A stretch of DNA of 48,296 nt from a virus (Duplodnaviria; Caudoviricetes). Positions 7,001 through 47,132 of the stretch are shown here, in pieces. Position 1 is the first letter of the stretch; the number at the start of each line of letters is the position of its first letter. The DNA lies in the IMG/VR virus record IMGVR_UViG_3300030708_000704, positions 1 through 48,296 of that record. One strand, 5' to 3'. The translations under genes and the position numbers were made by a program. The notes beneath the pieces are model-generated. The model saw only the letters and a program-made list of their open reading frames with translations. It ran no database searches and had not been told where the DNA came from.

Positions 7001-10000
7001 TACTATTGTAGGTACAATCAGAAATGATAATACTATTCTTGTCACAGATGTTCATGGCAAGTTTAATAACAGTGCTGCTTTTGCTACTGATATCAAAGTA
7101 TTGAGACTGACTTTAGATAAACCTTCTAGTTATGCTCAGGGTTCTGTATTGTCTTTGACTGATGGTGTTGTAACTGTCAGTGCAACTGGTGAAGTTCTAG
7201 AAAGTGTTTCTGAAGGAAATACTGTTCTTGTCAAGGTGCTGTCGGGAACATTCCAAGATCAAGATACATTGGATAGTTTCCTAAAGAGTGACAATCTATC
7301 AGATACCTCTGGTTCTAAGATTGATGACATTGATTATCTAAGTGATGGTTTGATTCCATTTGATATTGATGATAATATCGCGTTAGTTACTACTAGCGAA
7401 GATCACAATCTGGGTATTGGTGATATTGTCAATGTATCTGTTAATCCAGATGATAATACAAAAACTGTCACATATTATGTAAGAAAGAGAATTTATCAAG
7501 AAGTAGAACTCAGAACACCTGTGTATGACACTACTGTTGATTACAGTGGTATTGGTAGATTGCTTATCTTTAACGCAGGTCTTCTATATCCAGTTGGAAC
7601 ATACACCAATGTCGAAGTAACTGGTGGTAGTGGAGAAAATGCTACTGTTACTGTTGTTGTAAGTCCTTTAAATTCTGGAGATGCTACTGGATATGTTTCT
7701 AGTGTACAAATCCAAAATGGCGGTACTGGATATAAGAGAGGAGATGTCCTTTCTATTGCAGATGCTGATCTAAATCGAGTATCAGGATCATCTACACAAG
7801 TAGTTAAATTCTATGTTGATCATGTAGGTGTCTCTACTGTGGCGACAACTATTGATGTTGTCAGTGCTGCAGATTATGCTAATAATGATTTACTTCTTAT
7901 TGATGATGAAATTGTCAAGATTATCTCGATTGTTAATAACCAAGTTGGCAATGACACTCTGACTGTAGAAAGGGCACAAGAAGGAACTACTGCGGTAGAC
8001 CACTATGATGGTGCTCCTGTTTCAATCTATAAACCTGGATATAATTTAAGCAGCACATATAGTGTAAATGGCAGTGAGACTATTATCTACGATAGAGATC
8101 AACAGAAACTTCTGGTTATCTATCCATCTACTCAAACTTTAGGTGCTCTGCAACCTATTACAACACAAACTAGTTTCTTCGACGAAAGCACACCTAGAAA
8201 GTTTGTCACTGTAGTTAATGCAACAACACCAGAAAATAGATTTGAATTTAAATTAGATCCATCTCTAAGTATCTTTAGTACAGACGCACCTAACAACTTT
8301 GTATCTGAATGGACAGTTAATCCAATCATTCAGGTTCAGGAAGCATATCGTTATGTGTTTGACACCTCGGATGCTTCTTTGACTGGTTCTCATCTTGACT
8401 TTAGTCCTAGTGGAAACTTCAACCTAATTTCTATCGAGAAAAAAGAATCAACAGTAGCACAAGGAAATGCTGGTTCTTTTGTTGATATGAAATTTGGATT
8501 TGGTTCTAGATTCTCAACAAACACATATACAGAGAGACAACAATCCAATTTCTCTAATTTCTTCTACTTCGATCGCAATGGATCTATTTCTAGCAATGGT
8601 TCTTATCTGAGAATTGTTAGAGATCCTCTTGCTGGAAGAAATACTGTTAATTTTGTTTCTCCAAGATCTTTCTCATACTCTCTATCAGCAGAACCACAAT
8701 GGGATGGATCTGGAACTATCTCTTACACCACAACAGGACAATTTGCTGTTGGAAGTATTGACGCAGTATCTGTACAAAATATTGGTGCCAATTATAAAAA
8801 GGTTCCAATTGTTCTTGGTGTCTATCCAAACACTAAGAAGACAGCAACTGCTACAGTTGATTTTGATTCAACATTTAAAACAATCACTGGAGTAACCGTA
8901 ACCAATACTGGAAGTGATTATGTTAATCCAAAAGTAATTATTTTGGATGGTGATGGGAAGAATGCAGAGTTCAAAATTACTTCCAGAGATGGAAAAGTAT
9001 TGGACATTGTTGTTGTTTCTCCTGGAACTGGATATACTAAAGCGCCCACTATTGCAATAGTCGAATCTTCCATAAAACTATTTGCACAGGGTAGTAGAGT
9101 TGGTCTACCTAAGAATATTAAAATTATTAAAAATGGAAGTTCTTTCCACAATGATAAAACAATTCTTCCTGAGTATACTGGAAGTTATGTTTTGGTTGTT
9201 AAAGGATATACTGGAAACTTCCTCAGAGGTGAAAATGTATCACAAACTGTAAATGGTCAAGAAGTATTCTCTGCTGTTGTTAGAGAATGGAGAGATGGAT
9301 CTAATTTACTTAAACTTTCTAACATCAAAGGAAAATTAAGAAATGGTGTTTCTCTGCAAAGTAAGATTTCAAAACAAAGTGTTACTTTCCATAGAACTTT
9401 CGTAACTCCATTTACAATTGACCTAAAACCATATGCAGATAATACTGGAAGATTTACTTCCGATAAGGGCAGAATTGGTAATGCAAACCAAAGAATTACA
9501 GATTCGTTCTTCTATCAAGATTATTCTTATGTTGTAAAGTCTAGATCTTCAATTGATTCTTGGAGAGAACTAGTAAAAGAAACAACACACCCCGCAGGAT
9601 TTAAACTGTTTGGTGAAGTAATTATTGATCCTAAGATTGAAGCGCCAAATGGTATTGAAATGCCAGAGGCATTACCAAAGGCAGATCATTTTTCTATCAT
9701 TGAACTTTGGGATCCACAGAAAAACAAAATTACTGTAGAGAGCACAAAGAGAACTTTAACTCAGACTATTATTTCTACAGAGGACTATCGTTCTATTAGA
9801 GGTTCTGGTTCTGTTGATGTAAATGAATTTGATTTACAAACTTTACGAGCAAGAGAACTATCACTCGTTCAGAATGCAAATGATCCAAGTCCATTTGATG
9901 GTACTTTTAATGCTGATGGTCAATTAGTAGGAACCAAGACATTTACATTATATAATGGAGGAACACCATATTCTCCATATAGCACAGAGAATGTAATTGT

Positions 10001-19900: not shown

Positions 19901-22900
19901 TTACCCTACTGGTGGAAGTCAAGTATCGTCTATCTCTCAGGGAACTGACGATTCTAAGATTACATTCTTCTATAGAAAAGACTTCATTACAGAATCCTCT
20001 GGTAGTGGTGGCAATATTACCTTTACTGCTCAGTTACCATTTGGCACACAAAGATTTGCCAAGTTTACACCAGAAAACTTTGTAATGACTGTATTGGATG
20101 CAGGATCTGCTACCAATGTTGCAAAAGGTGATATTATCTACTTGACTGAAGATGACATTATTACCGATAACACCACAGATGTTACTAGTGGTTTAAATGC
20201 AGGTAGTGTACAAGTTTCTCTACCAACAGAGTTCTTTGGTACATCTACAACTCCATTCCCTAAACTAAAACTAAGTGCAACTCTAGAACTAAGTAAAGCA
20301 AGACCTAGAATTAAGACTTCTGTTACAAATAAGAGAGTTCTAATTAAGTCTGTTGGAGATAGAGTTGTTCCTATTAGAGGAGAAGATTTCGACACCGAGG
20401 ATACTTCAGTAGCAACATATTCCGATATCTACAAGTTGAGATATGTTTATGAAGGAACATCTTCTGCTCCTCCAGTCATTGATACTGCGGGCAACCTAGT
20501 TACTGGTATTGATGTAACTGAAAGATTTACATTTGATGATGGTCAAAGAGACACTTTCTATGATGTTTCTAGAATTGTTCTAAGACCAGGATTTGATGCA
20601 CCAGTAGGTCAACTAGTAGTTGCATTTGATTACTTCGAGCATTCACAAGGTGATTTCTGCACGGTTGATAGTTATTTACATGAAGCAGGTGTAACACTGG
20701 ATGAAATCCCATCGTTTAACTCTGCAGTACATGGTATTGTATCACTCAAAAATGTATTTGACTTTAGACCTAAAGTAGACTCTACTTCTACGATTACTGG
20801 TTTCCAAGATCAATCTTCCAGAGAGATTATTATCAGAAACTTTATTGGTAGTGGCGGTGTTGCATCTGTTATCCCTGCCCCAGATAAAGGTCTTGAGTAT
20901 ACATTCAAGTTCACTCAAACTGAATTCTTGAATAGAATTGACGGCATCTATCTAAACAAAAAAGGTGAGTTTGTTCTCAAGGAAGGTAATTCCTCCCAGA
21001 ACCCAACAAAACCAGAATTGATTGACGATGCAATTCCTCTCTACTACTATTACATTCCTGCATTCACTACTAGCAGCAGAGATGTAAGAATTACTCCAGT
21101 TGACAACCGTCGTTACACAATGCGTGACATCGGTAAACTAGAGAAGCGTATTGAGCGTCTTGAGTATTATACTACACTTAGCATCCTAGAGCAACAAGCT
21201 CTAAACATGCAAATCAAGGACTCTATTGGTTTAGACAGATTCAAGACTGGATTTGTTGTTGATAACTTTGAAACTCATCGCATCGGTCAAATTTCTTCCG
21301 AAGATTACAAGTGTTCGATTGACACACAGCAGTCTGTAATGAGAGCACCTAATAAGGAAGATTCTTTCTTGCTCAAAGAAATCAACAAAACGGATGATCA
21401 AAGATTTGTTGATGGATATGTAAGAAATGGTGACATGGTAACTCTACCATTCACAGAACTAAAAGTTCTTGGAAATGATTTTGCAACCAAGACTATCAAT
21501 CCAAACCCATTTGTAGCACTGCAGTATGTTGGTGATGGATCACTTTCTCCAGAGATTGATTCGTGGTACGATCAGTCTGTTGAACCTCTAATTGTTGATA
21601 ACAATACTGGATTATATTCTATCTTTATTGCAAAAGAAGATACAACCGAGACATTCTCTAGTATCTTTAATTCTTTTGTAATTAACTGGGTTGGCACATC
21701 TGGCACTTTTGGAAGTATTACTTCTCTTGGAACTACAAACACCGAGCAGTCCAATGCTCAGGTTACTGTAGCAGCAACAGCAAGTAGTTCTAATGTAAGT
21801 CCTGACAACAATGAAATTGGTAAAGGAATCTCTAGCGACTCTGATGAGAAGAGTTCTGTTGCAACTTCACTGAAGTTCTATGCAAGATCTACCGCAGTTA
21901 AGTTTACAATCAAGAGACTAAAACCATTTACTAGAGTATATCCTTTCTTGGATGGTATTGATGTTTCTAGATGGACTAATGCCGATTCTAGATATAGTGG
22001 AGTTGCAGGAAACTCATTAATCGGTTTCAATTCTCCAATCAATACTGATGAAAATGGAAATGCTAGCGGTATTATTCTAATTCCTGCTGGTTATCCACCA
22101 ACGGAGAATGCAACTTGGACTGGTGATGTACAAACACTATCCTATGATTTCACTCAACCAATTGTAAGAATTCCAACAGGAATTAAGACAATTAGATTTA
22201 CTTCTAGTGCTTCTAATGCTGCTAAGGATACCGTAGATACCTACACAGATCTTAAGTTCTATGCTACTGGCAAACTACCACAGAACCCAGCAAGCATCAC
22301 ATCTACCTCCCCTGCATTCTTCAAAGCAAATGAAGGTATTCAGAAGATTGATAGCGTCACGGATGTAGAAGTTAAACCAAATCCACTTGCACAAACATTC
22401 AGTATTGATTCGTTTGAAGGTGGTTTGTTTGTAACCAGTGTCGATCTATACTTTAACTCCAAGAGTGACAGTATTCCTGTAAGAGCATATCTTACAAATA
22501 CTGAGGCAGACAAACCTGCGAAGCACATTCTTCCTGGTGCAGAAGCAACTGTCAATCCAGAGACTAAGATTCGTGTATTTACAAACGGAACTACAACACT
22601 GAAGATTGGTGAATCTATCACTGGTGCTCAGTCTGCTTGTAGTGGACCTTTACTAAAAGTATTGGATACCACAAATATCGAAGTCTCTGCTTCTGCTAAT
22701 GGAAATGTTATTCTTTCTAATGATCAGGTTTATACCCTGGTCCTTTCTAACCACAACGGAAGAGAGTTTAGACAGAACGAGACTTTGATTATTGAATCTG
22801 TAACTTCTTATAATAACGAAAACAATACTCAGTTAGCATTAACTATTGCTAAAGATTCTGGAACTGTTTCTAGTCTATCTGTTACTAGCACTGGTGCTGG

Positions 22901-25157
22901 TTATGAGTCTGCTTTCTTGACATTTGAAAGTCCACAACTACCTGGCGGAAGTCAAGCAAGTGGAGCTGTTAAGATTTCGGGTGGCAGAATCTATTCTGCT
23001 AATGTAGCACTAGGTGGTTCTGGATATACTTCTCCACCTGCAATTGTTGTTAAAGGTGTTGGACAGTCTGCAGCAGGTGCTGTTATTACTGCAAATATCA
23101 CTATCGATAATCCTGCGGTTAAGATGGGTGTTGCTGTTGACACAGGAGAAGTAACTAATTCCACAACTCCAACTAAATTTAAGTTTAAGAATCCTGTCTA
23201 TTTGCAGAATGATGTATCTTATGCACTAGTTGTTGAGACAGATTCCACTGAGTACAAACTCTGGGCATCTAGACTAGGTGAAACAGAGATTGTCACTAGT
23301 TCTCCTGTAACCACACAACCTCTACTAGGTTCTGTATACAAAGCACAGAATACAGATAACTGGACTGAAGATCTATTTGAAGATCTCAAGTTCAATCTGT
23401 ATCGTGCAGAATTTGATATCACCAGACCTGCAAATCTCAAACTTTCCAATGAAGTTCTTGGTTTAGAGAATCTCAAATTGAATCCAATTGAGACTAGTGG
23501 TGTTTCTGATCAGAATGCAACTGCTGAACTATTCAAACTCAATAATAAGTATGTAAAAGTATATCATAAGAATCATGGTTTTGAAGACCGTGGAAATTCT
23601 TATGTCTTCATGACAGGAGCAGATGGTGTAGGTGGTGTTTCAAGCACCCAGTTAAACACAACTCTATTCCAAGTTAAGAATGCTGGTATTGATACTTATA
23701 ATATTATCAATGCAACAACTGCTGCATCTAGTGTTAAGGGTGGTGGTAGTTTAGTTCTTGCTTCTTACAATAGAAAATTTGAAAGACTATATCCACGAGT
23801 TAGTTACCTGTCTTTTAGTGGAACAACTATTGACTCTACTGTAAGAACCACAAACATCGTTCCTGTTGATTCCGATACTAATGTTTATACATCATATTCG
23901 CAAACAGGATATGAGAAGACTTTCTTGAATGAAATTCAATACTTCACAAATCAGAAAGTTATTGCTTCCAACATTAACCAAGTCATGAATAATCTAGATA
24001 ATTCTCTAGAGTATAAGATTGACTTCCGTTCTGATGTTTCATATCTGTCTCCTGCTTTTGATCTTTCTTCTTCCTCTGTAATCACTTCTACAAATAGAAT
24101 TGAAAAAGCAGCAGGTAGTGAGACAAGATTTGGCAGAAGAGATCAAGTGTTGAAACTCAAAGAAGTTTATGAGTTTGGAACAGGATCCTTGACTGGTGGT
24201 GACATTGAGGTAGGAGATTCTATTGAAGGATCTAACTCTAAGGCGAAAGGAATTGTTGTTGCTAGAGCAACAGTTAGTGGTACGCCAATTGTAACAGTAA
24301 GAATTTCTACTGTAAATCCTTTTGTTAAAGGTGATACCCTGTCAATTTCTGGAGAAACAATTACTCCATCGATCACTACCGACCCAGTTAAGATTGAGTT
24401 TGGTGGTACTGATGGTCCTGCAATTATTGCCAATGGTGCAACCATCAAGGCAAGAGATGTCGGTCTAACAAATACATTCGATGCCAAGATTGAAGGTAAA
24501 GTTACATTCTTTGATATCAAGAATCAGACAATTACTGTCAAGAATGACAAGAAACCATTTGGTTCTACAACATTCACTCAAAGCGTTTCCGAAGCTGCAA
24601 TTGTAGAACCTTCAATCGCTAGATCTGGCACTGGTGTTGAAGATATCTTCCGTGTAGGAGACATTATTCAGTACACTGGTCAAGATGAAGATGAAAAGGC
24701 ATATTGGGAAGTTAAGGAATTGACATATACCGATGGTATTGACTATTCTCCAGAAAATAATTTCTCAAATAGTTCTTCTCTTGCTAAGTATGTAACCAAA
24801 GAAATTTCTATTGGAAACCCAGGAACTTCTATCAATGTCAAGTTGACTGCAAATGTCAAAGACATCGAAGACATTCAAGTATTGTTTAGATATAAAGAGT
24901 CTTCTAGTCAAGAATCTTTTGATGTTATTGAATATCAATACTTCAATGGAACTGGATTACCAGATGTTCCAACAGTTGCAACTTCTACCAACACTATTTC
25001 TAGTGTTGTTGAGAAGCAAGAATCTTATCAAGAACTAGAGTACAGTGTAGCAGATCTACCTGAATTCTCATCTTTCGGAATTAAGATTGTCATGAAGTCT
25101 GATAATCCTTCTTATGTTCCTAAGATTCAGGATATGAGAGCTGTTGCTTCTTATTGA
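16986..25157 (+). CDS. Large virion structural protein, VrlC/DUF4815-like
   Basis: N-terminus PYYEDFDASKNFYKILFRPGYSIQGRELTQVQSILQNQIE, plus APGAHRL, LAKRTYDESGDY, RRYTMRDIGKLEKRIERLEYYT, DRFKTGFVVDNF and NPLAQTF. Confidence 0.85.
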   Translation: MPQKTNLNVNPYYEDFDASKNFYKILFRPGYSIQGRELTQVQSILQNQIESFGKNTFKQGELVVPGEVGLNNRLDYVKLSSVSEVAVNEDGSIVFRKYDISQIVGRQLRGLTSGVLANLVAVQKSTETSADTLFVNYLSSGNAGNENTFRQGETLEVVNGVNTPLLVVGTDGSVLPTTVTVVDPDTQAETVLSSPAMGFASAVKVEEGVYFVNGYFVRNDEELFVIDPYYNAPSAKIGFKIEEKIVTPEEDPTLYDNAAGSSNFSAPGAHRLNISLTLEKYSLEETTDKNFIKILTVKSGVIQKQIKPVEYSLIENTLAKRTYDESGDYVVDRFDTEVREYYQKDGNNGIYAADDNNLVNGLSIQDASQKMVVDVGPGKAYIKGYEIVNKETKSIVINKARETVDAENITLKTSGLPTYPITNVFGSVPFNADGADLTAYPDLNLYRTYNDGTIGQNIDFTGASVADPTRTGVETKSTVNRRGTLFTDGQAIKTITVDITKSNLIDKINTTNNLAFSDCCDSNGNLHVVFTYDGGSPETFKTFKLIGFSVKYRPDILAAKRYAELTVLGNKDEVIGLLKEYDEVDGAQTRKLYLSTDTSNANLDPDEVLGYVVDYSEHVTPLIGVAKPSNYTFKENGFGFNPDTDTVISKGKLSGGQSAYNAIFGLGYFGPTFYTKIVLDAPIATGQFSKGKYIFGVNSGAYGVIEGATGSAFTTGNELMVTTLSGKFQPGEVIREEADAQGGTNSARIAINNTISHFIVKFRSQGYAQGSGITINGVAFDTSKVDVELNIDGKVIYIDIKNRNAFTQTYSEPPNVLVDVGSANVTATAKIEAVLFRDTVTTYTPEDVKSFGCAFGSGGSNTFTADIESAKSPYAKLTPVTDFTFTGTEGYKFLSCNGFNGDTTTFLKAGDYVQFTGDDGFTEKAMVLYATKPEGTLKSRIYLDTVLPSDVSNGSVVKVGSIIENGSKGSLIYPTGGSQVSSISQGTDDSKITFFYRKDFITESSGSGGNITFTAQLPFGTQRFAKFTPENFVMTVLDAGSATNVAKGDIIYLTEDDIITDNTTDVTSGLNAGSVQVSLPTEFFGTSTTPFPKLKLSATLELSKARPRIKTSVTNKRVLIKSVGDRVVPIRGEDFDTEDTSVATYSDIYKLRYVYEGTSSAPPVIDTAGNLVTGIDVTERFTFDDGQRDTFYDVSRIVLRPGFDAPVGQLVVAFDYFEHSQGDFCTVDSYLHEAGVTLDEIPSFNSAVHGIVSLKNVFDFRPKVDSTSTITGFQDQSSREIIIRNFIGSGGVASVIPAPDKGLEYTFKFTQTEFLNRIDGIYLNKKGEFVLKEGNSSQNPTKPELIDDAIPLYYYYIPAFTTSSRDVRITPVDNRRYTMRDIGKLEKRIERLEYYTTLSILEQQALNMQIKDSIGLDRFKTGFVVDNFETHRIGQISSEDYKCSIDTQQSVMRAPNKEDSFLLKEINKTDDQRFVDGYVRNGDMVTLPFTELKVLGNDFATKTINPNPFVALQYVGDGSLSPEIDSWYDQSVEPLIVDNNTGLYSIFIAKEDTTETFSSIFNSFVINWVGTSGTFGSITSLGTTNTEQSNAQVTVAATASSSNVSPDNNEIGKGISSDSDEKSSVATSLKFYARSTAVKFTIKRLKPFTRVYPFLDGIDVSRWTNADSRYSGVAGNSLIGFNSPINTDENGNASGIILIPAGYPPTENATWTGDVQTLSYDFTQPIVRIPTGIKTIRFTSSASNAAKDTVDTYTDLKFYATGKLPQNPASITSTSPAFFKANEGIQKIDSVTDVEVKPNPLAQTFSIDSFEGGLFVTSVDLYFNSKSDSIPVRAYLTNTEADKPAKHILPGAEATVNPETKIRVFTNGTTTLKIGESITGAQSACSGPLLKVLDTTNIEVSASANGNVILSNDQVYTLVLSNHNGREFRQNETLIIESVTSYNNENNTQLALTIAKDSGTVSSLSVTSTGAGYESAFLTFESPQLPGGSQASGAVKISGGRIYSANVALGGSGYTSPPAIVVKGVGQSAAGAVITANITIDNPAVKMGVAVDTGEVTNSTTPTKFKFKNPVYLQNDVSYALVVETDSTEYKLWASRLGETEIVTSSPVTTQPLLGSVYKAQNTDNWTEDLFEDLKFNLYRAEFDITRPANLKLSNEVLGLENLKLNPIETSGVSDQNATAELFKLNNKYVKVYHKNHGFEDRGNSYVFMTGADGVGGVSSTQLNTTLFQVKNAGIDTYNIINATTAASSVKGGGSLVLASYNRKFERLYPRVSYLSFSGTTIDSTVRTTNIVPVDSDTNVYTSYSQTGYEKTFLNEIQYFTNQKVIASNINQVMNNLDNSLEYKIDFRSDVSYLSPAFDLSSSSVITSTNRIEKAAGSETRFGRRDQVLKLKEVYEFGTGSLTGGDIEVGDSIEGSNSKAKGIVVARATVSGTPIVTVRISTVNPFVKGDTLSISGETITPSITTDPVKIEFGGTDGPAIIANGATIKARDVGLTNTFDAKIEGKVTFFDIKNQTITVKNDKKPFGSTTFTQSVSEAAIVEPSIARSGTGVEDIFRVGDIIQYTGQDEDEKAYWEVKELTYTDGIDYSPENNFSNSSSLAKYVTKEISIGNPGTSINVKLTANVKDIEDIQVLFRYKESSSQESFDVIEYQYFNGTGLPDVPTVATSTNTISSVVEKQESYQELEYSVADLPEFSSFGIKIVMKSDNPSYVPKIQDMRAVASY

Positions 25158-25166
25158 TTTCCGCGC

Positions 25167-25382
25167 ATGGGTTATATCAAAGTCGAAGGACATGACGGTC
25201 TCGTAAGAGACGAAAACACAGGTGCCATCATCATTCGAGACAATTCTGCCATAGAAGGCAGAAGGAAATCGAAGCAGCTAAGTTCCGCGTTGGAAGACAT
25301 AAATACATTGAAGAATGAAGTCTCTGAAATCAAGTCCCTTCTGCGCGAGTTAATAAAAAATGCCAGCAATTCAAGTAGCTAG
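25167..25382 (+). CDS. Small conserved hypothetical protein with C-terminal coiled coil
   Basis: KVEGHDGLVRDENTGAII followed by heptad-like INTLKNEVSEIKSLLREL; overlaps the next start. Confidence 0.75.
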   Translation: MGYIKVEGHDGLVRDENTGAIIIRDNSAIEGRRKSKQLSSALEDINTLKNEVSEIKSLLRELIKNASNSSS

Positions 25383-28300
25383 AACTGATACCTTTGAACA
25401 GCAAAGGGTCAAAATTAATGAAATTGGAACCAATTTATTCAATGTTACTTCTGGTGGAAGCGATCTCGCCACAGGTAACTTAAAAATTGGTGACGGTACG
25501 CTAGCAGCACCTGCTCTAGCATTTGATAACGAACAAACTCTGGGTCTATACAGACCATCCACAGGTGTCATTGGGTATGTCTCAGCATCGAAACTCTTGT
25601 ATCAATTATCTGATACAGGATTTTTGAGTTATAGAAATTTCATTTTTAGAAAGAATGAAATTAATGACGCTGGTATTGCTATTACTCAAGCAGGACAAAA
25701 CTATGATCCTGGAACATATAATGATATTAGTGTAATTGGTGGCACAGGAACTAGTGCTACTCTAAACATCACTGTAGGTGATTTTATTGGAACCGAGAGT
25801 AGTGGTGCAAACTACACACCTGGAACATATTCTTCTTTGCCTATTGTTGGTGGAAGCACTGCTACTAGAAGTTTTGTTGATTTTACAGTAGATGATATCG
25901 TTGTTGATATCACTAATGCTGGTAGTGGTTATACAGATGGAACTTATCCTGGTGTATCTGTAACTGGTGGTACAGGAACCAGTGCTACCGCAGACATCAC
26001 AGTTACTGGTGGTGTAGCATATGCAGGAAATATTACAGGTGGTTCTGGATATACCGATGGTGTGTATACTCAGGCACTAAGAAATGAAGCGAAGCAAACA
26101 TATGTTGTTACCGTTTCTGGTGGACCTGGAACATATGCATATGTTCTAGATGGTGTTACACAACCAACACTTGCTTTTGAAGCAGCAAGCACTTATAGAT
26201 TTGATGTATCTGATGCTAGTAATGCTGGACATGTTCTTTTCTTACAAGGAACTGGACAGTCAGGAACTCCTCCTGCAGGATTAACACTAACTGCATTTGG
26301 AACTCCTGGTCAACAGGGAGCATATGTTGATGTAATTGTTGAAAGTGGATACTCCTTAACGGGTGCTTCCTACAACTGTGTGAATCACGCTGCTGGTCAA
26401 ATGGGTGGCGACATTACTTTTACTACAGGAACTCCTGGGGTATTTGGTAGTGGTGCTGTAGCAGAAATAACAATTAGTGGTGGAGCATTGACTGCAGTCA
26501 ACTTCACTTCTACAGGAACTGATTACAAAGCAACTGATGTATTAGAAGTACCTCCATTTACTGTTGGTGCTGGAACTGGGGCAGAGTTTGAAATTACAGC
26601 AGTAAATCCAAATGGAACTATTACTGGAGTAACATTTACATCTCCTGGACAAAACTATGTAATTAACGACACTCTATCTGTTAATGCTGCTGATGTTGGG
26701 GGAACAGGTGCAGGTGCTATCTTTACAATCACCAGTGACCCTGGACAAGTAAAGAACTTTGCATTTACTGCTGCTGCCACTGATTACGCTGCTAATGATG
26801 TTCTCACACTAGCAACAGAGCAAACTGGAGTTGCCGCCACTCTTGTAGGTGAAGATGGTGGTAATACAGTACCAGAACTCTCTTTTACTGTTGCAGATGT
26901 ATCAAATATTGTTCCTGGTTCTACGGTCACCGTTACTTCTGGATCTGGAGCACTAGGTGCAGGAACTACCTTAGTACAAGGTATTGATTATGACACTAAT
27001 ATCGTAACTATCGATAACAATCCTGCAACATCTGGTGCAGTGGTATTGACATTCACTCCGCCATATGGAAATCCAACTACGCCATTTACATACACAGTTA
27101 CTAGTGTTGGACCAATTGAATCTGTTACTGTAGGAAATGGTGGTGTTGGATATTTTGATGGAGATACATTATCGGTATCTGCTACAGATTTAGTTCAACC
27201 AATTACATATCCTGTTACAGCAATTGGTTTACAGCAATTAGATTTCGCATCGAATGCAGTTACCGCTGGTACATTTACAACATCTCAATCCGTTACAGGA
27301 AAAGATGGAACACCAACTGCATTATCTACAACTGCTTCTACGCAATTGTCTGCTAATGTTGTTGGTCCATTAGCAACAACATTAACTACTACCGTAGCAC
27401 AAGTTACAGTTTCTAGCACCGCTGGTATTTCTGTTGGATATATTGTAACTGCTACAGGAACTGGAGCATTAGGAGCAAATGTAACTGTTGCTTCTGTTGA
27501 TAGTGGTACAGAAGTAACATTATCTGCAAATCCAATTGCATCTGGTGCTGCAGACTTAACATTTACAGAAGATCTCGCACAAACTTATTCTTCAGTAGCA
27601 ACTAGCACTAATAGTGCTAATGGTAATTCGGAAACTGTAACAGTTACTAGAGATTCTTCTGGTAATGTTAGTAGTGCCATTTCAGATCAGGCAGGATTTT
27701 TCTATGCAATTGGGGACACATTAACTGTTGCTGGAAACTTAGTTGGTGGAGCAACTCCTGCAGATGATATTACATTAACAATCGATGCAGTAACAGACCT
27801 CAGTCCAACACAAATCAGAGAAGTTAATGAGTCTGGTGGATTCACAACTTCGATTCTTGTCGATGATGGTTCTTATGCCGACAATCAACAAATTGTTATT
27901 GAAGGATCCACATCTCCACAATACACTATTGCTACTGCTAGCGCATCTGGAGGTAAGTTTGGTTATCTAATCGATAGTGGTTCTGGACCAGTATTTAATC
28001 CAGATCTGACACTATATGTTGGAAACACATATAGATTTGATGTGTCGGACTCTTCAATGTCTGCACATAGTTTCAGGTTCTCTCAATTCCCAGGCGGTAT
28101 TCATGATAATGGTGTTGTTGATAATGTAACATCTACATTGACTGCAGGTAGTGTAAATGTAACTGTTGCTAGCAGCACGGGTATTTTAGTTGGTATGGCA
28201 GTCAGTCTTGATAGCGGTGCTGGCACATTACAAAGCGATACTAAAGTTGCCTCTATTGTTGATGCAACTACAATTACTGTAGATAAAGCACCAACAGTAG

Positions 28301-30510
28301 GCGGTGCTGCAGTTCTTGATTTTAGAGGATATGCATACGAAGAAGGTGTTTCAGAAAACCCTGGAGAGATCAGTCTAAAAATTCTAACTACAACTCCAAC
28401 TCTATATTATTACTCAAATAATTCTGATCCTGCATATGCAGGTGCTAGCGGTTCTCCTGGAAACGAAGCAACATTAACAATGGATGCCAACAATCCAAAA
28501 GTATTTGGATCTGGGTTTGAGTTAGATGTAATTACAGTTGGTTCTGTTGATATCATTCAGAATGATATTGCATCTGGACAATTATCAGCAACTACATTCG
28601 CAGGAACTACTGTTAATGTTGCGGATGTTACTGCTACAAATAGTGTAAATGCAACTACAGTCAACACGACTACTGTAAACGCAACTGTATTTGGAACTGG
28701 AACTGGTCTTGCGGTTTCTGGTGGTCCTATTACAATCACTGGTCCAAATCTCAATATTGGACCTAATTTAACTGTAGAAAATTCCACAGGAAATATTACA
28801 TCTTCTGGTGTTATTAAGAGTACCCAAGAGTTTAATTCTAATAATGTATTAACCATTAGCAATTCGACAATTGCTACTCTTGGATCCAATGATATTCTTT
28901 TACAACCAGCTGCTAACAGAGTTGCTAAGACAGTTGGTGACACTGCATTTGTTATTCCATCTGGTGATACTAGTCAGAGACCTGCTGCTCCTATTGCACA
29001 AGATGGTGCAATTAGATTCAATACACAGACTAATCAATATGAAGGATATAGTGCATCGTCTGCTTCTTGGTCTTCACTTGGTGGTGTTCGTGACCTAGAT
29101 GGTAACACATTTATCTTAGCAGAAGCAACTATTGGTGCAAATGACAACACATTGTACTTCTACAATGATGGTGTTAATACTGCAAAGATAACTCCAACAT
29201 ATCTAGACTTCTTCAGCGTTAAGAAGATTCGTTCTAGTAATACACTTGCTCCTGCATCCACAGAATGGAATGCAAATACTGCTGTTGCAGAAGGAGATTA
29301 CATTAAGCATAAGGAAAATATCTATGTTGTTCCTGTGGGTGGTGCTGGTACTCTTGGAACCAGTGGTAGTGAACCAGTACACACATCGGGAACTCTACCC
29401 AACGGAACTGCTCAACTTCAATATAGCACATCTGCAGTTGGAACACTCACATTTGAGGAATGCGAAGAAGTCAGAATTGGACCTACCGATTCTACTCCTC
29501 TTGTAGTTAACCAAAAACTAAGATTCTCTGGAAACACTATTTCTACAGATTCTGATGATTTGGTTATTCAACCAAACTCTGGACAGAAGACAGTTGTTAA
29601 TTCTACTAGTTCACTTGTACTACCTGTTGGTGATGTCAACCAAAAAGGTGCTGCTGTACAAGGTTCTGTTCGCTTCAATACTACTGACGGACAGTTTGAG
29701 GGATATGATGGAGCGCAATGGGGTTCTCTTGGTGGAGTAAAAGATGCTGACCAAGATACATTAATTAAAGCAGAAGTTGCTCCTGGTTCTGATGAAGATA
29801 CATTATTCTTCTTCAATGCAAATACAGAGACAGTAAGATTAACAGTCAACGGACTAGAATTTACTGGTATCGATACAATCGATGTTTCTGCTGCTGGTGT
29901 TGCTGGTGGAGAAACTCTTGCAATCAATGCAGATACAATCACTCTAGATAATAATGCAACCACAATTGATAACACAGATAGCACCAGATCCTTCTTCTTT
30001 ACATCTAGACAATACTTAGATCTTGGAGTTTCCTCTGGTATTAATAATGATCCTATTCTAAGATTAGATGATCAAGGTGATGTGTTCTTAAACACTACTT
30101 TTGGAACAGGAACATTCACAGGTGTTAAGATCTTTGATGGAGAACTAAAAGAGTTTGAACTTGCCGATTATAAGATTACTACTGGAGACCTTACATTTAC
30201 TAAGGGAACAGTAGATACAGGAGCAGTTGTTCTCTATGATCCTGCTACTGCAATTGGATGTAAAGTCACTGTTGCTGCATTAAATACTACAACAGGCGAC
30301 AAAGAATTGGTTGAGTATACCGTTATCGACGACGGTACAGATATTTCATTTACAGATTTTGGTAATGTAAAAACAGGTGCAGATTTGTTCTCTTCTTCGT
30401 TTGATTTCAATGCATCAAACAATGTAAGAGTAACAATTACTGCAGACAGCGGATTAACTGCTGGTGACAATATTATTATCAACACAACCGTAAACATCTA
30501 TAAGAGATAA
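25360..30510 (+). CDS. Large Thr/Gly-rich virion fibre/structural protein
   Basis: N-terminal RTDTFEQQRVKINEI, many GxGY beta repeats, cupredoxin-like modules and a duplicated G(A/S)(I/V)RFNT..Q(Y/F)EGY..W.SLGGV.D.D fibre motif. Confidence 0.8.
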   Translation: MPAIQVARTDTFEQQRVKINEIGTNLFNVTSGGSDLATGNLKIGDGTLAAPALAFDNEQTLGLYRPSTGVIGYVSASKLLYQLSDTGFLSYRNFIFRKNEINDAGIAITQAGQNYDPGTYNDISVIGGTGTSATLNITVGDFIGTESSGANYTPGTYSSLPIVGGSTATRSFVDFTVDDIVVDITNAGSGYTDGTYPGVSVTGGTGTSATADITVTGGVAYAGNITGGSGYTDGVYTQALRNEAKQTYVVTVSGGPGTYAYVLDGVTQPTLAFEAASTYRFDVSDASNAGHVLFLQGTGQSGTPPAGLTLTAFGTPGQQGAYVDVIVESGYSLTGASYNCVNHAAGQMGGDITFTTGTPGVFGSGAVAEITISGGALTAVNFTSTGTDYKATDVLEVPPFTVGAGTGAEFEITAVNPNGTITGVTFTSPGQNYVINDTLSVNAADVGGTGAGAIFTITSDPGQVKNFAFTAAATDYAANDVLTLATEQTGVAATLVGEDGGNTVPELSFTVADVSNIVPGSTVTVTSGSGALGAGTTLVQGIDYDTNIVTIDNNPATSGAVVLTFTPPYGNPTTPFTYTVTSVGPIESVTVGNGGVGYFDGDTLSVSATDLVQPITYPVTAIGLQQLDFASNAVTAGTFTTSQSVTGKDGTPTALSTTASTQLSANVVGPLATTLTTTVAQVTVSSTAGISVGYIVTATGTGALGANVTVASVDSGTEVTLSANPIASGAADLTFTEDLAQTYSSVATSTNSANGNSETVTVTRDSSGNVSSAISDQAGFFYAIGDTLTVAGNLVGGATPADDITLTIDAVTDLSPTQIREVNESGGFTTSILVDDGSYADNQQIVIEGSTSPQYTIATASASGGKFGYLIDSGSGPVFNPDLTLYVGNTYRFDVSDSSMSAHSFRFSQFPGGIHDNGVVDNVTSTLTAGSVNVTVASSTGILVGMAVSLDSGAGTLQSDTKVASIVDATTITVDKAPTVGGAAVLDFRGYAYEEGVSENPGEISLKILTTTPTLYYYSNNSDPAYAGASGSPGNEATLTMDANNPKVFGSGFELDVITVGSVDIIQNDIASGQLSATTFAGTTVNVADVTATNSVNATTVNTTTVNATVFGTGTGLAVSGGPITITGPNLNIGPNLTVENSTGNITSSGVIKSTQEFNSNNVLTISNSTIATLGSNDILLQPAANRVAKTVGDTAFVIPSGDTSQRPAAPIAQDGAIRFNTQTNQYEGYSASSASWSSLGGVRDLDGNTFILAEATIGANDNTLYFYNDGVNTAKITPTYLDFFSVKKIRSSNTLAPASTEWNANTAVAEGDYIKHKENIYVVPVGGAGTLGTSGSEPVHTSGTLPNGTAQLQYSTSAVGTLTFEECEEVRIGPTDSTPLVVNQKLRFSGNTISTDSDDLVIQPNSGQKTVVNSTSSLVLPVGDVNQKGAAVQGSVRFNTTDGQFEGYDGAQWGSLGGVKDADQDTLIKAEVAPGSDEDTLFFFNANTETVRLTVNGLEFTGIDTIDVSAAGVAGGETLAINADTITLDNNATTIDNTDSTRSFFFTSRQYLDLGVSSGINNDPILRLDDQGDVFLNTTFGTGTFTGVKIFDGELKEFELADYKITTGDLTFTKGTVDTGAVVLYDPATAIGCKVTVAALNTTTGDKELVEYTVIDDGTDISFTDFGNVKTGADLFSSSFDFNASNNVRVTITADSGLTAGDNIIINTTVNIYKR
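28945..29860 (+). repeat. Two diverged protein-level copies of a fibre module (about 28945-29200 and 29615-29860)
   Basis: IPSGDTSQRP..GAIRFNTQTNQYEGY..WSSLGGVRDLDGNTFILAE versus LPVGDVNQK..GSVRFNTTDGQFEGY..WGSLGGVKDADQDTLIKAE. Confidence 0.85.
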
Positions 30511-31057: not shown

Positions 31058-34000
31058 ATGAGTTTTCATATTAATTCCGACAAAGAGAAAATTAGGGGCG
31101 CAAACCCTAAACTCATCGGTGATAATGAAGTAACAATTAGGGTCGGTACGGGGTCTAATGAAAGAGAAATTCTTAGATCTCAACTAGATGGTGCTACCCA
31201 GTTACCTCGTGTTGGTATTAACAGAACTGGACAAAGAGTCAATAATATTAATATATTGACAGGCGGTTCTGGATATACATCCGCTCCAAATGTTGTCATT
31301 GATCCACCACCAGCTGGTGGTGTTCAGGCAACTGGTTCTGCTTTTATTTTCAATGGCAGAGTTGTTTCTATTGCTGTCAACAATCCTGGTAATGGATATT
31401 CAGTTGCTCCAACTGTAACAATCACTGATGGCGGTGGTCAAGGTGCATCTGCAGAAGCATTCCTTGATACTGTTGACTTTGAACTTGATATTAATGGTGC
31501 TATTAGAACTTCCACCTCTATCATTTCTGATACGGCGAGAATTCTAAACCTGGATATTGATAATTTTATCACACCAGACGCTAATTTTAGAGCACCCAAC
31601 TTAAAAACATTTGCTAACAACACAGGAACCCCATGGGCTGCTAGTGTTATTGTCCAAAAAGATGCTTACAGATACTTTGGTAATAATATTTACCAGGCAA
31701 TTAATGCTGGACAAACTGGACCTAATGGTCCAGAACACCTAGATGGCATTGAACTAAACGGAGAAGTTCAATTTAAGCATATTGGTTTCAGAGTAGTTGA
31801 CTCTAATAATTACAAATATAATGAAACTGGAGAGTCTGGCGTATTTCCAAGATCTATCACACCTCTACTAGGTGATAGATCCGATAAGATTGCTACTACT
31901 GAGTATGTTCTAAACCTAGCAACCAATGATGTTGGTGGCAGAATCTATGTTTCTTCTCAGATTGGTAGTGACCTAAACGATGGTCGTTCTGCTGTAAACC
32001 CTGTCCGTACCATTAAGAAAGCGGCACAGTTAGCATGGGCAACTCCTGGTGTTAAAGAAACTCTGATTGTTTCTGGTGGAGACTATGTAGAAGATAACCC
32101 AATCTCTCTACCACCTGATGCATCGGTTGTTGGTGATAACCTTCGTCTTGTAATCATCAGACCTGCTAATCCTAAGAAGCACATCTTTAAGTTTGGTGAT
32201 AAGAACTATGTAACTGGTGTTACATATAGAGACCAAATTGACTCCAATGGCGATCCCGTTGCTACATGGGACTTCGCAATGGTGTTCGATGATAAGCAAA
32301 GAATTCTCATCGACTATGAGGCAAACGGAGACTTTGGTGTTAACTTCCCAATTGGTCACCAAATTTTTGGTCCTGATGAATTCAATGTTGTATTCCAACA
32401 GAACACAGGTTTACAGCAGTTAGTAAGTGGTAGACTGGTAAAAGGTCTAAACACGGGTGCTAGAGCAAGAGTTCTTGGAGTTGAGTTTGATGCAACAACA
32501 GGTAATAGCGCATTTATTAATGGTAAAGCAGATGTAAGACTAATCAGTGGTTCTTTCTTACAAGGTGAGCAATTTGAATATCTAACAAGTGCTAGTACCA
32601 CGGGAACAACTTATTCTTCATTAACTTCAGCAACAACAACTTCTGGTGAAAACCAATTACTTTTCACTACCAATCCCACGAATGATTTCAATGCTGGTGC
32701 ATATGTTAGACTAACTGCTTCTTCCGCAACTGCTAGTGGACAAATTATCTCTGGTGACTATGAAGTTGTTAGCATTGGTGCTACCTCTCCATATGAAGTA
32801 ACATTTGCTCCTATTTTAGGAACAACTGGATGGAATTCCGATGGAGAAACGGTAACTATCACTCAGGGTGAAGAGATTACTGTTCAGGCAGAAACATTCG
32901 ACTCTTCAGAAATCAATTCTATTAGAGCAGAAGGAGAAGTTGTATCTGTTGATGAAGATGTTACAACAACTTTACCAATTTCCAGAATTGACTTCTCTCT
33001 ACAGGGAGATCCATCTATTGCAACTGGAGGTTTCCAGAGCGCACAGTTTGGCAACGCAGAAGATCTAGGTGGTATTGTTTTCTACACAAGTGCTCTTGTA
33101 GGTAGACAGAATACTCATGACTTTAAAGAAGGTCAAGAAATTTTAATTGAAGGTCTTCCAACTTCTGGTCCTGACCTATCTTATCTAAACGGCAAGCAAA
33201 GAATTTACAAAGTTCTAGAAGACGCTGATGGTCGTTCTAGAAGATTTGTTATTCCTAAGAAAGTACCTGGAACAAATGACGCTAATTTCCAACCAGGATC
33301 TACTGCTGTTGTTAAGTCTTTCACAAGGTCAGTAACACTTTCTCTACTTAACTCACCAAACACCTTCCCAATTGCTACTGCTGTAGACAGAAGATTTCAG
33401 GATGCTTGCACATTCTTACGCAACAACAGAGAGTTTATTGCGGATGAAGTAGTCGGAAGAATTAATGACGAATTTAAGACAGATTACTATTCTGTTTACA
33501 ACATTGGTGGTCAAGCAACCGCGCAGTATACTCCTACTAATGTAACATACGATCCTGCTACTGGTGATGCAGTATTTACTGTTAACAATCATGGATTGTC
33601 GGTAGGTGATGGTGTAAGAATTGCAGATCAGTCTATCGTATTTACATGTACGATGGATGGTAACAAAACTGAGCACGCTCTTCCTGATACAGATCAGTAT
33701 GCTAGCGGCAAGTCTTTACCAATTACAGCAGCAACTACAAATACATTTACTTTGAATGTAGGTGCTTCTGGTCCCGATCAAGTATTTACTCCTTCTGGTG
33801 CTGATTATAATCCTGCTACAGGAGCTTTAGAACTAACAATTGGTGCTCACACTCTATCTGTTGGCGAAGGAATTATAATTGCTGATAATTCATTGTCCTT
33901 CACTTGCACGATGGACAATAATCAGTCTGTCAAGCAATATCCTCGTCCTGGTATTGATCCTTATGCAGGTAGGTCTATGCCTATTACTGCAGTCAGTGCA

Positions 34001-37000: not shown

Positions 37001-40000
37001 ACTGGATCACCAATGGACTTGACTGATAAGTCTACTGGTCAAGCAGTTGCAACTAGCGTTCTTCTAGGAGAAGAAATTGCACTACACAGACCATCTATTG
37101 TTAACTCTTCTTCCCACACTTGGGAATTTGCAGGATCTGGTAACGACTACAACTCTCTACCAGAAAACGGTGGTGTTAAGATTGAGGCAAACGAGCAAGT
37201 TTCCGAAAACTATGGTCGTGTATATGTCTCTGGTACTGACGAACTAGGCGACTTCAAGGTTGGTACATTCGCTAGAATTGAGAACAGAACTGGTAATATT
37301 ACCTTCACGGGTACGGTTACCATCTCTGAAGTTGAATTCTTGAAACTGAAAGGTGGCGATGTTGTTGTTACTGGTTTCGATAACTCTAACACACTTGGTG
37401 GTGCTAACGCAACTGACTCTAAACTACCTACTCAAAAGGCAGTTAGAGATTATATCACCAACAACCTTGGACCATACATCAACAAACCATACTCTACGAA
37501 CGCTGTTCCTAGAGCACTGGTTGAACTAACTGACTCTGGTAAGATTTCGGTCGATCAGATTCCAGCACTAAGACCATTCAGTGTCTTCACTGTTGCTGAT
37601 GAAAATGAAAGATTAGCATTAGAAGGAGCACTTGCTGGTGATATTGCTATTCAACAGGGACTCGCCCCACTTGGATTTACTTCTAGCAACATTAACACAA
37701 CTACAGATCAGATTACAATCTTAAATCATGGTCTTACTACTTCTAAGTTAATTACTTATAAGCAAGGAAATGGAGCAACAGCACCAACACCTCTCAACGA
37801 TTCACAAGATTACTATGCAATTGTTGTTGATTCTAATACTATCAAGTTAGCAGCATCTGTTGTTGACGCAAATGCAAATACTGCAATTGATATTACCAAT
37901 GCTGGTTCTGGAAGTCATACTTTAGAACCAGAAGGATCTACACAGACATTTATTCTTAACAATGATGTAGATAGTCTATTCCTTGGATTTGCGGTAGATC
38001 CAAATCTATCGTTTACTATCGGTGATGTATTCGCTGGTAGTATCACAACAGGTCGTATTCAAGCAACTGAATATAGAACAGGCGTCGTTTATCAAATCAA
38101 TCTCACTGATGGAGGTAGTGGATATACTTCCGCACCAACAGTAACTATTACAGGTGGTAATCCTGGTGCTGGTTATGTAGAAGCAAAAGCAACTTGTACT
38201 ATTGCTAATGGAGAGGTTGTTACTGTCACAATCATTGACTTTAACGGATTCAAAGGTGGTAAAGGATACACCACACAACCATCTGTTCAATTCTCTGCTC
38301 CTCCTGGATCGGGAACTACCGCACAAGGTAATGCTTTACTTGAGAGCAGACTATATGGTGATATTGTAAACAATATCAAGATTGAAGATACTGATACTAT
38401 TGATGACAGCAATGCTGCTCCTAACACAAATACTGTTAACCTCACGAGAGTTGTTAACACTTCATCATTTGACGCTGCCAACTGGGTATCTCTATCCTCT
38501 AACCAGATTGCAGCGTCTGATATTACATCAGGTGTTATCGAAACCGACAGACTTGCCCTTGGCGGATCTGCAAACTCCTTCACATTCTTGAGAGGAGACT
38601 CTAACTTTGCTCTTGCAGTACAGTCACTTAAAGGTGCTGAAACAAGATACTTCGCTAAACTCAATAGTCAGGCAGCACAAGGCGCAAGTCAATTTGTATT
38701 CCAATCAAATTCTGATGCTCTAATTGGTCATGAAGTTGTTGCTAGTGTAACAGGAATTCAGGCAAATACAAATATCACTGGTGTTCTTACTGTTGGTGGT
38801 TTAACTACGGTTTCTTTCAACAACCCACTAACTGCCACAATTCCAATTGGAACAATCATTGAGTTTGAGCGTGGAGCATCTCCTCTATCGTTTGAATCTA
38901 CTTACACACAAGGCAACTTTGTTGATGAAGTTATCATCGCAAATGCTGGTACTGGATTTACTAACGGTCAATATTTTGATGTTGCTCTACTAGGTGGTGC
39001 AGGAACAGGACTAAAGGCAAACATTGTTGTTTCTGGAAACGCAGTTACAGAAATTACTGTTACTGATGGTGGTACTGGATACAATACAGACTTTACTGTA
39101 TCATCTGCTCCTGCGGCAATTGGTTCTGGATCTAACTTAGTTCTCGAAGCAAAGATCTCTACTGTTAATAGACAGTACGCGAATGTCTCTATGGATGTTC
39201 AGCGTGTAACTGATCTAACAATTTCTGCTGATCTATTTGGAACAGTTGGTGTTGCGAGATTTAGAAAATCACAATTCAATGTTGGACAGGAAGGAAATGG
39301 TTCTGTCACACTCAAAACTGGTCCTGATAGCGGACTCGATGCTGACTTACTAGATGGTCAGCAGGGTGCTTACTATACCAGTGCTACTAACCTATTCAGT
39401 GGAACTGTTCCATCTGATAGATTGGCAGGTAGTTACAACATTAGTATTTCTGGTTCTTCTACTAACACAATCAGACTTGCTTCTGGTACTAACAACCCAA
39501 CTTCAAACCCAACTCCAGATACATTTGTTACTGGTGTTGTTTCTAACACGGTATTCAATACCGCTATTGGTCTCAATGATGGTGGAACCAAAACTATGGT
39601 TCTCACCTTCAGACCTGCAGGAAGTGGATTTACATTCGACGGTGGTGTCAAGCAGTTGGCATTTACCGACAATGATAACATGTATCTCCGTGGTTCGGGT
39701 AGTGGAGTTCTAACATTTGGATCATGGGCAAAAGTTTGGACATCTCTAAATGATGGTGTTGGTTCTGGATTAGACGCAGATAGATTTGATAACAGACAAG
39801 GACTCTGGTATCAAAATGCACTGAACATTAACTACGGAACTTTATCTGCTACCAGACTACCTGGATATCTAGAAGAAACTGCAATTAGAGATACTATTAC
39901 ACTGAAGTCCTTCAACGGAGATCCAAAATATAGAGTATATGTTTCTGGTCTTGTTCTTGATACATCGCCAACTGGAACATTTGCTCCTAGTAATGCAGTC

Positions 40001-46007: not shown

Positions 46008-47132
46008 ATGCCTACTAGTCCCTATTTTCCAACTTACTACGCAGGTCATAGTGGCGAGCAAGGTCTCGTTCAGGATCTGGTAGACGAGCAAATTAAACTA
46101 TTTGGATCTGATGTATATTACATCCCTAAGATAGTTCTGCAAGATAGCACTCTGGATGAAGTTAGATACACAAAGTATCAAGAACAATTCCAAATCGAAA
46201 TGCTGCTACAGAATGTCACAGGTTTTGGTGACAACGCAGAATTCATCAGTAAGTTTGGTTTAAAAATCACAGATGAAATTATCTTCCGTGTTTCTAGTAG
46301 GAGATGGGATGAGGAAGTAGCAGAGCATAGTCCTAACCTAACAGTAGACAGCAGACCCAATGAAGGTGATCTACTGTACTTCCCACTAACAAAAGATATC
46401 TACGAAATCAAATTTGTTGGTAAGGAAGAACCTTTCTTCCAGTTTGGCAAGATTCAATTCTATGCCATCACTGCTGAAATCTATGAGGTTGGTAGTGACG
46501 ACTTTGATACTGGTATTGCAGAGATTGATGCAGTCGAACAACTCTTTGATAATGCTATCAAACTCTTCATGGATCCTGGTGGTACAGGAGACTTCTCTGT
46601 AGGTGAAGAGGTTGTTGGTGATGAATTCCTAGCAAAAGCAACTGCTGCTATTACTGGTGATGCTGTTACAGGTATAACTATTACTGACGGTGGATCGCAT
46701 TATAAACAAGCGACTCCGCCAACCGTTACTATTACAGGAGGTGGAGGAAATGGGGCAACCGCAACCGCTACGGTTAGTAGCACAGGCATTGTTAATGGTA
46801 TTACTGTCACTAGCCCTGGGTCAGGTTATACTTCTGCACCTACTATCGTCATTGATTATTCACCAAAAGACAACAGAGCAGAAGTCAAGTCCTGGGATAG
46901 CGCAACCAGAACTCTCCAAGTCATCAACAGAACAGGAACCTTCACTACTGCTGAAGTAATTACTGGTCTAACTTCAGGTGCTAAGTGGAGTCCTGAAACA
47001 TTTGACACTCTAAATAACTCCAACAGTGACTACGATCAGAATAGACAGATCGAAGATAGTGGAGATGAAATTATTGACTGGACTGAGGGCAACCCATTCG
47101 GTGAGTATGGCAATTTTACAGGTAGTATCTAA
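46008..47132 (+). CDS. gp14: Neck protein gp14 (with an inserted GxGY beta module)
   Basis: EQGLVQDLVDEQIKLFGSDVYYIP, SKFGL, RPNEGDLLYFP, PFFQFGK and DWTEGNPFG. Confidence 0.93.
   Translation: MPTSPYFPTYYAGHSGEQGLVQDLVDEQIKLFGSDVYYIPKIVLQDSTLDEVRYTKYQEQFQIEMLLQNVTGFGDNAEFISKFGLKITDEIIFRVSSRRWDEEVAEHSPNLTVDSRPNEGDLLYFPLTKDIYEIKFVGKEEPFFQFGKIQFYAITAEIYEVGSDDFDTGIAEIDAVEQLFDNAIKLFMDPGGTGDFSVGEEVVGDEFLAKATAAITGDAVTGITITDGGSHYKQATPPTVTITGGGGNGATATATVSSTGIVNGITVTSPGSGYTSAPTIVIDYSPKDNRAEVKSWDSATRTLQVINRTGTFTTAEVITGLTSGAKWSPETFDTLNNSNSDYDQNRQIEDSGDEIIDWTEGNPFGEYGNFTGSI

Follow-up and report, generated by a model that had tools for sequence, protein, structure and literature searches.

A self-nested beta module that probably forms a projecting arm on a cyanophage virion structural protein

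A virion structural protein of 1716 residues, encoded in a 48,296-nucleotide stretch of viral DNA (hereafter the window), carries four first halves of a small beta module followed by the four matching second halves. We consider it likely (probability about 0.8) that these are four barrel modules of about 80 residues, each inserted in the hairpin turn of the one before it, which together form a projecting stacked arm. This reading starts from observations: the order of the halves, the presence of an intact module elsewhere, nested covariation, and the matched gain or loss of innermost layers. Hereafter, A and B denote the first and second halves of a module, and a layer is an A+B pair. The chain would run outward via A1-A4 to a tip and come back via B1-B4, and the arm would project sideways from what is likely a trimeric virion fibre.

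The window belongs to a T4-like marine cyanophage and spans its baseplate and tail genes, which encode gp25, gp6, gp7, gp8, a DUF4815 protein, the 1716-aa protein, a 166-aa protein, a 3565-aa tail-fibre protein and gp13-gp15. The gene of interest is flanked by the DUF4815 gene and the 166-aa gene, and cultured phages share these neighbours. Its product matches the phrog_6005 profile with 1727 bits. The closest relative, at 97.6% identity, is a 'virion structural protein' of Synechococcus phage Sf-CH1b, and nearly all of the 57 matching phage records are cyanophages. Pfam gave no match for the protein, and a sequence search of solved structures returned chance-level rows only, none related to the family or to the module. 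Residues 1-100 likely form a baseplate anchor and the beginning of the fibre shaft, given what we take to be fibre motifs in this part. As for the conserved C-terminal part, it is likely a trimeric fibre shaft: the Atlas leads are PTL_trimer, CBM_5_12 and Mtd_N clusters, with scores of 0.82-0.84, all under 0.9. Annotation, gene position, these weak leads and the fibre motifs are what point to a trimer and to its location in the virion. There is no similarity between the N-terminus of the protein and its 3565-aa neighbour, and the accessible portions of PMC2984593 and PMC10665884 do not name the protein.

Several features of the neighbourhood deserve mention. The gap of approximately 200 bp upstream of the gene (25160-25357) matches the position of a 60-67-aa 'virion structural protein' in several relatives; an ORF there would fall under the ORF cut-off used. 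In phage S-B43 (L019, MN018232.1), the orthologue is annotated as a 1092-aa protein without the part matching residues 1-541, with a gene in the opposite orientation just upstream, which may reflect a rearrangement or an assembly artefact. At the start of the window (61-432), upstream of gp25, a SET-domain protein (PF00856, E 7e-11) is encoded beside 2OG-Fe(II) oxygenase-like genes.

The eight GxxY-type motifs that an earlier note on this DNA had listed between 25690 and 27142 are all present at those positions in the ORF at 25360-30510. In the protein, the motifs of the A halves start at residues 111, 148, 187 and 227, and those of the B halves at residues 386, 430, 473 and 595, which gives the order AAAA-BBBB (Table 1). 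The note had placed the eight halves in 25681..27195. Their order stands, but the run is broken by two inserts, a cupredoxin-like domain in A4 and a small barrel in B3, and B4 is not complete at 27195. No recent DNA repeat accounts for the nest, the best one being between A1 and A3 (76% identity over 66 nt).

Table 1. Positions in the window of the nest, its host protein and related modules.
Feature	Residues	Positions	Strand	Partner	Basis
Host protein (1716 aa), phrog_6005 'virion structural protein'		25360..30510	+		ORF, profile match, synteny
Conserved N-terminal part	1-100	25360..25659	+		many near-invariant alignment columns
A1, first half of layer 1	104-141	25669..25782	+	B4	covariation, shuffle scores
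A2, first half of layer 2	142-179	25783..25896	+	B3	covariation; two-layer orthologues
A3, first half of layer 3	180-219	25897..26016	+	B2	covariation; three-layer orthologues
A4, first half of layer 4	220-243 + 360-375	26017..26484	+	B1	covariation; split by the tip domain
Cupredoxin-like tip domain, splits A4	244-359	26089..26436	+		fold match, ligand conservation
B1, second half of layer 4	376-416	26485..26607	+	A4	motif, covariation
B2, second half of layer 3	417-461	26608..26742	+	A3	motif, covariation
B3, second half of layer 2, small barrel inside	462-487 + 569-584	26743..27111	+	A2	motif, covariation
Small beta-barrel insert, splits B3	488-568	26821..27063	+		VIA fold match
B4 main part, second half of layer 1	585-612	27112..27195	+	A1	covariation
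Side branch in B4 loop	613-1047	27196..28500	+		order read from sequence
B4 last strand, likely closes layer 1 and the whole insertion	1048-1062	28501..28545	+		covariation, motif
Conserved C-terminal part	1063-1716	28546..30507	+		
Intact reference module in gp7	1178-1255	7566..7799	+		HMM; AlphaFold2
Intact module in 3565-aa tail-fibre protein	2626-2696	38933..39145	+		HMM iE 5.9e-15
Proline-containing module relatives, gp7		~5660-6130, ~8750-9170			
Proline-containing module relative, gp8		16024-16200			
Proline-containing module relative, DUF4815 protein		~22860-23130			
Proline-containing module relatives, 3565-aa protein		31250-31453, ~38100-38340			
Proline-containing module relative, gp14		46677-46850			

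The intact module that had been proposed in gp7 is real: an HMM trained solely on contiguous innermost A-B modules, taken from 80 orthologue clusters, matches it with an iE of 1.9e-16, over HMM positions 5-74 of 81. The A half of this module scores against A1, A2, A3 and A4 with shuffle z values of 10.0, 5.2, 9.1 and 1.8, the last one being low because the insert cuts A4, and its B half scores against B1, B2, B3 and B4 with values of 7.5, 4.7, 4.7 and 11.2. When A halves are compared with B halves, z remains under 4 in most cells, with the exception of A1-B2 (about 6), and the mutual resemblance is weak, with cross-scores of 4-13 bits. The comparison with gp7 that the earlier note had called for thus ties all eight halves to the intact module, and the half scores together with the gp7 match indicate that A plus B make up one domain of about 80 residues. 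AlphaFold2 folds the gp7 module alone with a pLDDT of 94.4 and a pTM of 0.83. Pfam gave no match above the cut-off for it; PF22639, a T4 gp18 domain I-like barrel, scored below the cut-off (E 0.14 and 6e-4). Foldseek found no match of the module in the PDB at E<=0.001, and VIA fold searches gave best Z values of 3.8 (EF-Tu domain III) and 4.6 (T4 gp18), with none reaching 5. Matches this weak do not prove the fold new, nor do they identify a relative. Runs of two to five units of a proline-containing relative of the module are found in most structural genes of the window.

An alignment of 188 four-layer sequences, with an effective number of 119 and 316 module columns, was analysed for covariation by mean-field DCA. 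Nested pairing accounts for 42 of the top 100 covarying pairs versus 12.9 expected (13 for A3-B2, 11 for A4-B1 and nine each for A2-B3 and A1-B4), tandem-neighbour pairing for seven versus 12.8, and parallel-order pairing for 11 versus 12.9; as covarying pairs are not independent, binomial p-values for such counts are overstated. The nested order ranks first among the 24 possible A-B assignments, with 30 pairs for the runner-up. Module-relative contacts show nine exact recurrences between layers (null mean 0.63, maximum 6 in 20,000 draws), and other A-B combinations gave one such recurrence. Counted from the tyrosine of each half, the contacts (+11,+7) and (+14,+1), for example, are found in three layers. 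The two strongest covarying pairs join non-partners, G140-A472 (A1-B3) and N151-N432 (A2-B2), which we read as stacking contacts between neighbouring layers. The pairing A1-B4, A2-B3, A3-B2, A4-B1, already predicted in the earlier note, is supported by covariation and by matched depth changes, and we regard it as very probable; the contacts are not confined to sequence neighbours, as they would be in an ordinary tandem array. AlphaFold2 modelling of residues 97-622 (79 sequences) gave a nearly all-beta structure with a pLDDT of 94.2 and a pTM of 0.78, which supports one confident single-chain fold rather than a particular strand pairing or register. The top viral structure match of this region is a predicted ACG-2014e orthologue (TM 0.53, rmsd 8.6).

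Orthologues provide an independent series of nesting depths. We collected 371 protein sequences, including 140 ORFs from 168 loci; the 358 with a complete stalk correspond to 305 distinct sequences and 240 clusters at 90%. The unadjusted A/B strings are balanced in 210 of these clusters. With rules that discount split tail strands, devised after the exceptions were known, 232 are balanced, namely 157 with 4+4, 68 with 3+3 and seven with 2+2 halves. Among the eight others, the small barrel of six holds one more intact module (as seen by eye in P0169 and L050, with the same positions in the other four), one has four B cores by motif and one has an insertion in A2. Four of the 4+4 clusters balance through offsetting misses, and by eye two of them are 4+4 plus an inner intact module. 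Depth thus varies among relatives between two, three and four layers with matched halves, and the differences lie at the centre. If only one run of halves changed, one half would be left without a partner; in keeping with this, no orthologue is clearly unbalanced.

Shallow orthologues retain the outer halves, with the last A fused directly to the first B. Three-layer clusters keep B2-B3-B4 in 57/65 cases and B1-B3-B4 in 8/65, and two-layer clusters keep B3-B4 in 6/6. Because of these direct joins, A3-B2 and A2-B3 exist naturally as contiguous modules, in agreement with nesting. The innermost A-B is contiguous in 15 four-layer clusters (A4-B1 without insert), 65 three-layer clusters and six two-layer clusters, and in the 1716-aa protein, the cupredoxin-like insert is the sole interruption of the innermost copy. 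Among cultured phages, S-PM2 and S-RSM4 have three layers, and S-WAM2 and Sf-FR1 have two. The initial search favoured four-layer forms, so the proportions of the various depths are not a survey. A FastTree phylogeny, computed from the C-terminal part of 110 of the 226 full-length sequences, implies about 18 depth changes, a number that allele swaps instead of fresh insertions may have inflated. Length classes of about 1610, 1700 and 1780 residues were also considered as a measure of depth and rejected; passenger domains account for them.

The domain that splits A4 would lie at the tip of the arm. Its best fold match is 6tfd_A (VIA Z 8.5, rmsd 3.5, 104 aligned), cupredoxins fill most of its top 50 VIA rows, and Foldseek rows to rusticyanin have a probability of 1.00 with E values of 0.008 or weaker. 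Type-1 copper cupredoxins have a His, Cys, His, Met ligand pattern. The equivalent residues are kept in most of the 135 clusters with a tip domain (H291 and C340 in 128, H343 in 127 and M348 in 132), in a His...Cys-x2-His-x4-Met motif; of the 127 clusters that have this motif, 123 show the x2 spacing. H291, C340, H343 and M348 are therefore predicted by this likeness to form a type-1 copper site. No two- or three-layer form has the tip domain, some four-layer forms lack it as well, and in 11 sampled clusters, the cupredoxin-like domain is located in B1 rather than in A4. Orthologues of about 1800-1830 residues (P0135, P0169, L050 and relatives) combine a cupredoxin-like domain in B1 with an extra intact module in the small barrel of layer 2. 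Matches of about 120 residues resembling the tip domain recur in many marine phage structural proteins of the viral fold library. Our literature search found no paper on a cupredoxin-like domain of phage structural proteins.

The small barrel that splits B3 matches phage Bridgette 8eci_2 (VIA Z 7.1, rmsd 2.0, 65 aligned) and 9n71_B (Z 7.1), and among orthologues, it is frequently present in two copies. Two more copies in the 1716-aa protein, at residues 674-740 and 922-989, belong to the side branch, and the three copies score 93-102 against one another. Read from sequence, the branch would comprise a second cupredoxin-like domain in pieces, a fifth A-B module and these two small barrels. The second cupredoxin-like domain, in which Ser replaces the Cys of the ligand set, itself appears to host another barrel. 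The putative fifth module spans residues ~652-812 and is matched by the module HMM at residues 741-798 (iE 3.2e-6).

The outer layer likely closes only at residues ~1048-1062, after this branch. A few top-ranked covarying pairs, computed on 238 of the 305 sequences, link that region back to the beginning of the nest or to B4 (D116-K1047, z 8.8; T109-D1056, 8.3; T603-E1054, 7.3; K98-I1065, 7.3), and the motif preceding the last strand of B4 is present in 201/240 clusters. The covarying pairs K98-I1065 and R97-D1064 indicate that the ends of the insert meet. Since the top 60 hold no more A1-tail pairs than expected (2 versus 2.0) and a strong pair, Y91-P572, is unexplained, we hold closure at residues 1048-1062 to be likely and not certain. 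If right, it makes residues 104-1062 a single insert, with a nest of about 960 residues of which residues 613-1047 are a branch.

How might such an arm grow? With an insert of residues ~104-1062 whose ends are held together on the shaft, lengthening would be possible by self-insertion only and not by tandem duplication. The module would have two insertion sites, namely the A-B hairpin, which accepts another module, and a glycine-rich loop, which accepts passengers: the cupredoxin-like domain at the tip, small barrels on layer 2 and the large branch on layer 1. Every added layer would extend the reach by one barrel, and we estimate that four layers span roughly 10 nm. The arm would serve as a spacer that presents its passengers, most likely for surface binding.

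Alternatively, the nest might be real but have no spacer role, a promiscuous and tolerated insertion domain having piled up in itself with neutral depth. The module indeed occurs in many unrelated hosts and arrangements, and depth and passengers differ among close relatives, including the patchy occurrence of the tip domain. However, all 240 clusters retain two or more layers, and 127 or more of the 135 tip domains keep the copper ligands, which makes neutrality an unlikely explanation. Somewhat less probable still is pairing between chains, in which the A halves of one trimer subunit would complete the B halves of its neighbour to yield an intertwined stalk instead of three arms. Covariation is blind to the difference between contacts within and between chains, and the host protein is likely oligomeric. 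Nevertheless, the nest is predicted to fold as a single chain, the gp7 module is predicted to fold alone, and shallow orthologues have an unbroken innermost module. Finally, an ordinary tandem array, in which local duplications produced the A run and the B run separately and sequence neighbours form the domains (A1-A2, A3-A4, B1-B2 and B3-B4), is very improbable and already largely refuted by covariation, the joins in shallow forms and the census of depths: although the A and B halves are weakly alike, A1 and A3 resemble each other in DNA and plain tandem arrays of the intact module are known (P0241), neighbour pairs covary less often than expected, forms with an odd count of three layers are common (68/240), A and B numbers shift together, and arrays elsewhere alternate as ABAB and not as AABB.

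The earlier note had surmised that nested insertion is general in this phage; the self-nesting of the module appears to go further and to extend beyond it. A profile search gave 8,554 representatives at E<=0.001, and the half order in 146 of the best matches suggests single, plain ABAB tandem, nested and branched arrangements. P0241, a head-closure protein, has a plain ABAB tandem of the intact module. A gp6-like baseplate wedge protein (P0249) would contain a seven-deep nest, P0265, whose N-terminus resembles a signal peptide, a four-deep one, and P0228 a balanced branched tree of modules. Branched trees were also noticed in further phrog_6005 members (P0227, P0236). Two proteins with many module copies, P0224 and P0225, have a flagellar FlgEFG (rod/hook) C-terminus in one case and a type IX secretion signal in the other, which suggests a use of the module at bacterial surfaces. 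An automatic balance test classified the 146 distant proteins as 25 balanced nested, 15 balanced flat, 70 unbalanced at the threshold applied and 36 with too few halves, but as short profiles miss halves, this test is uninformative alone. In the 3565-aa neighbour, opening motifs of another domain at residues 825, 911 and 998 are followed by four clustered closing motifs at residues 1159-1225. Judging from these motifs, residues ~825-1235 (~33530-34760) are probably a second nest, and probably the 'architecture I' of the earlier note.

A broader, tentative possibility is that the module is an undescribed and widely mobile, self-inserting telescoping device with which phages, and apparently bacteria, tune the reach and branching of surface arms by nests two to seven deep and balanced trees, and with which marine cyanophages hold a blue-copper site off the virion. 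If so, the particle could touch its host through a metal-binding or redox site. The analysis points to a conserved set of copper ligands at what is likely the end of an arm on the virion. The matched steps of two, three and four layers in one gene and of seven in another offer a natural series for tests of lengthening and folding, and bear on how a chain that is obliged to return to its origin gets longer. With its two insertion sites, the module also offers a scaffold of tunable length, and nesting helps account for the poor annotation of giant cyanophage tail proteins.

Some of these features have counterparts in known systems. The phrog_6005 members S-PM2p089, SRSM4_148 and the Sf-CH1b protein are encoded by orthologous genes at the same position and are annotated solely as virion structural proteins. 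The tip domain shares the predicted fold and the His/Cys/His/Met set of plastocyanin, rusticyanin and amicyanin; the cyanophage copy differs in its location, as a tip insert of a phage structural protein, and its copper binding is a prediction. Contractile tail sheath proteins (T4 gp18, diffocin CD1363) have a 'Russian doll' domain-in-domain order, according to the accessible part of PMC6088184, and like the cyanophage protein, they are phage structural proteins with domains one inside another. In that account, however, the sheath nests different domains, whereas the cyanophage nest consists of copies of one. In fold, the module comes closest to residues 99-186 of T4 gp18, but this match is weak (Z 4.6, rmsd 2.9, 73 aligned); as EF-Tu domain III also scores, it may reflect a common barrel arrangement.

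The closest architectural parallel is Si3 of the cyanobacterial RNA polymerase beta' subunit (RpoC2). As described in the accessible text of PMC10895346, Si3 is 150 A long and comprises eight SBHMs that are not in simple tandem, four of them assembled from distant sequence. It is the showcase of a 2026 survey, with a six-level recursive insertion; in the available sections of that survey, deep self-nesting is treated as rare and inserted domains are said to require close termini (PMC13114784, section 2.2 for the latter). The 1716-aa protein has the hallmarks of recursive self-insertion, namely homologous copies, outer copies that are split and completed in reverse order, and a continuous innermost copy. 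As far as these sources describe Si3, both systems involve a small beta domain inserted recursively in its own copies, to give an elongated insert with its ends together. Foldseek rows to 8emb (Si3) have E values of 0.007 or weaker and probabilities under 0.1, and the comparison is one of analogy in architecture, not of homology. Our literature search, which covered openly available papers without supplements, found no description of the module or of nesting in cyanophage proteins. Recursive self-insertion was thus already known from Si3. The cyanophage nest differs from it by its domain and host, by a second loop of the module that carries passengers, and by its variation in matched depth steps across close orthologues.
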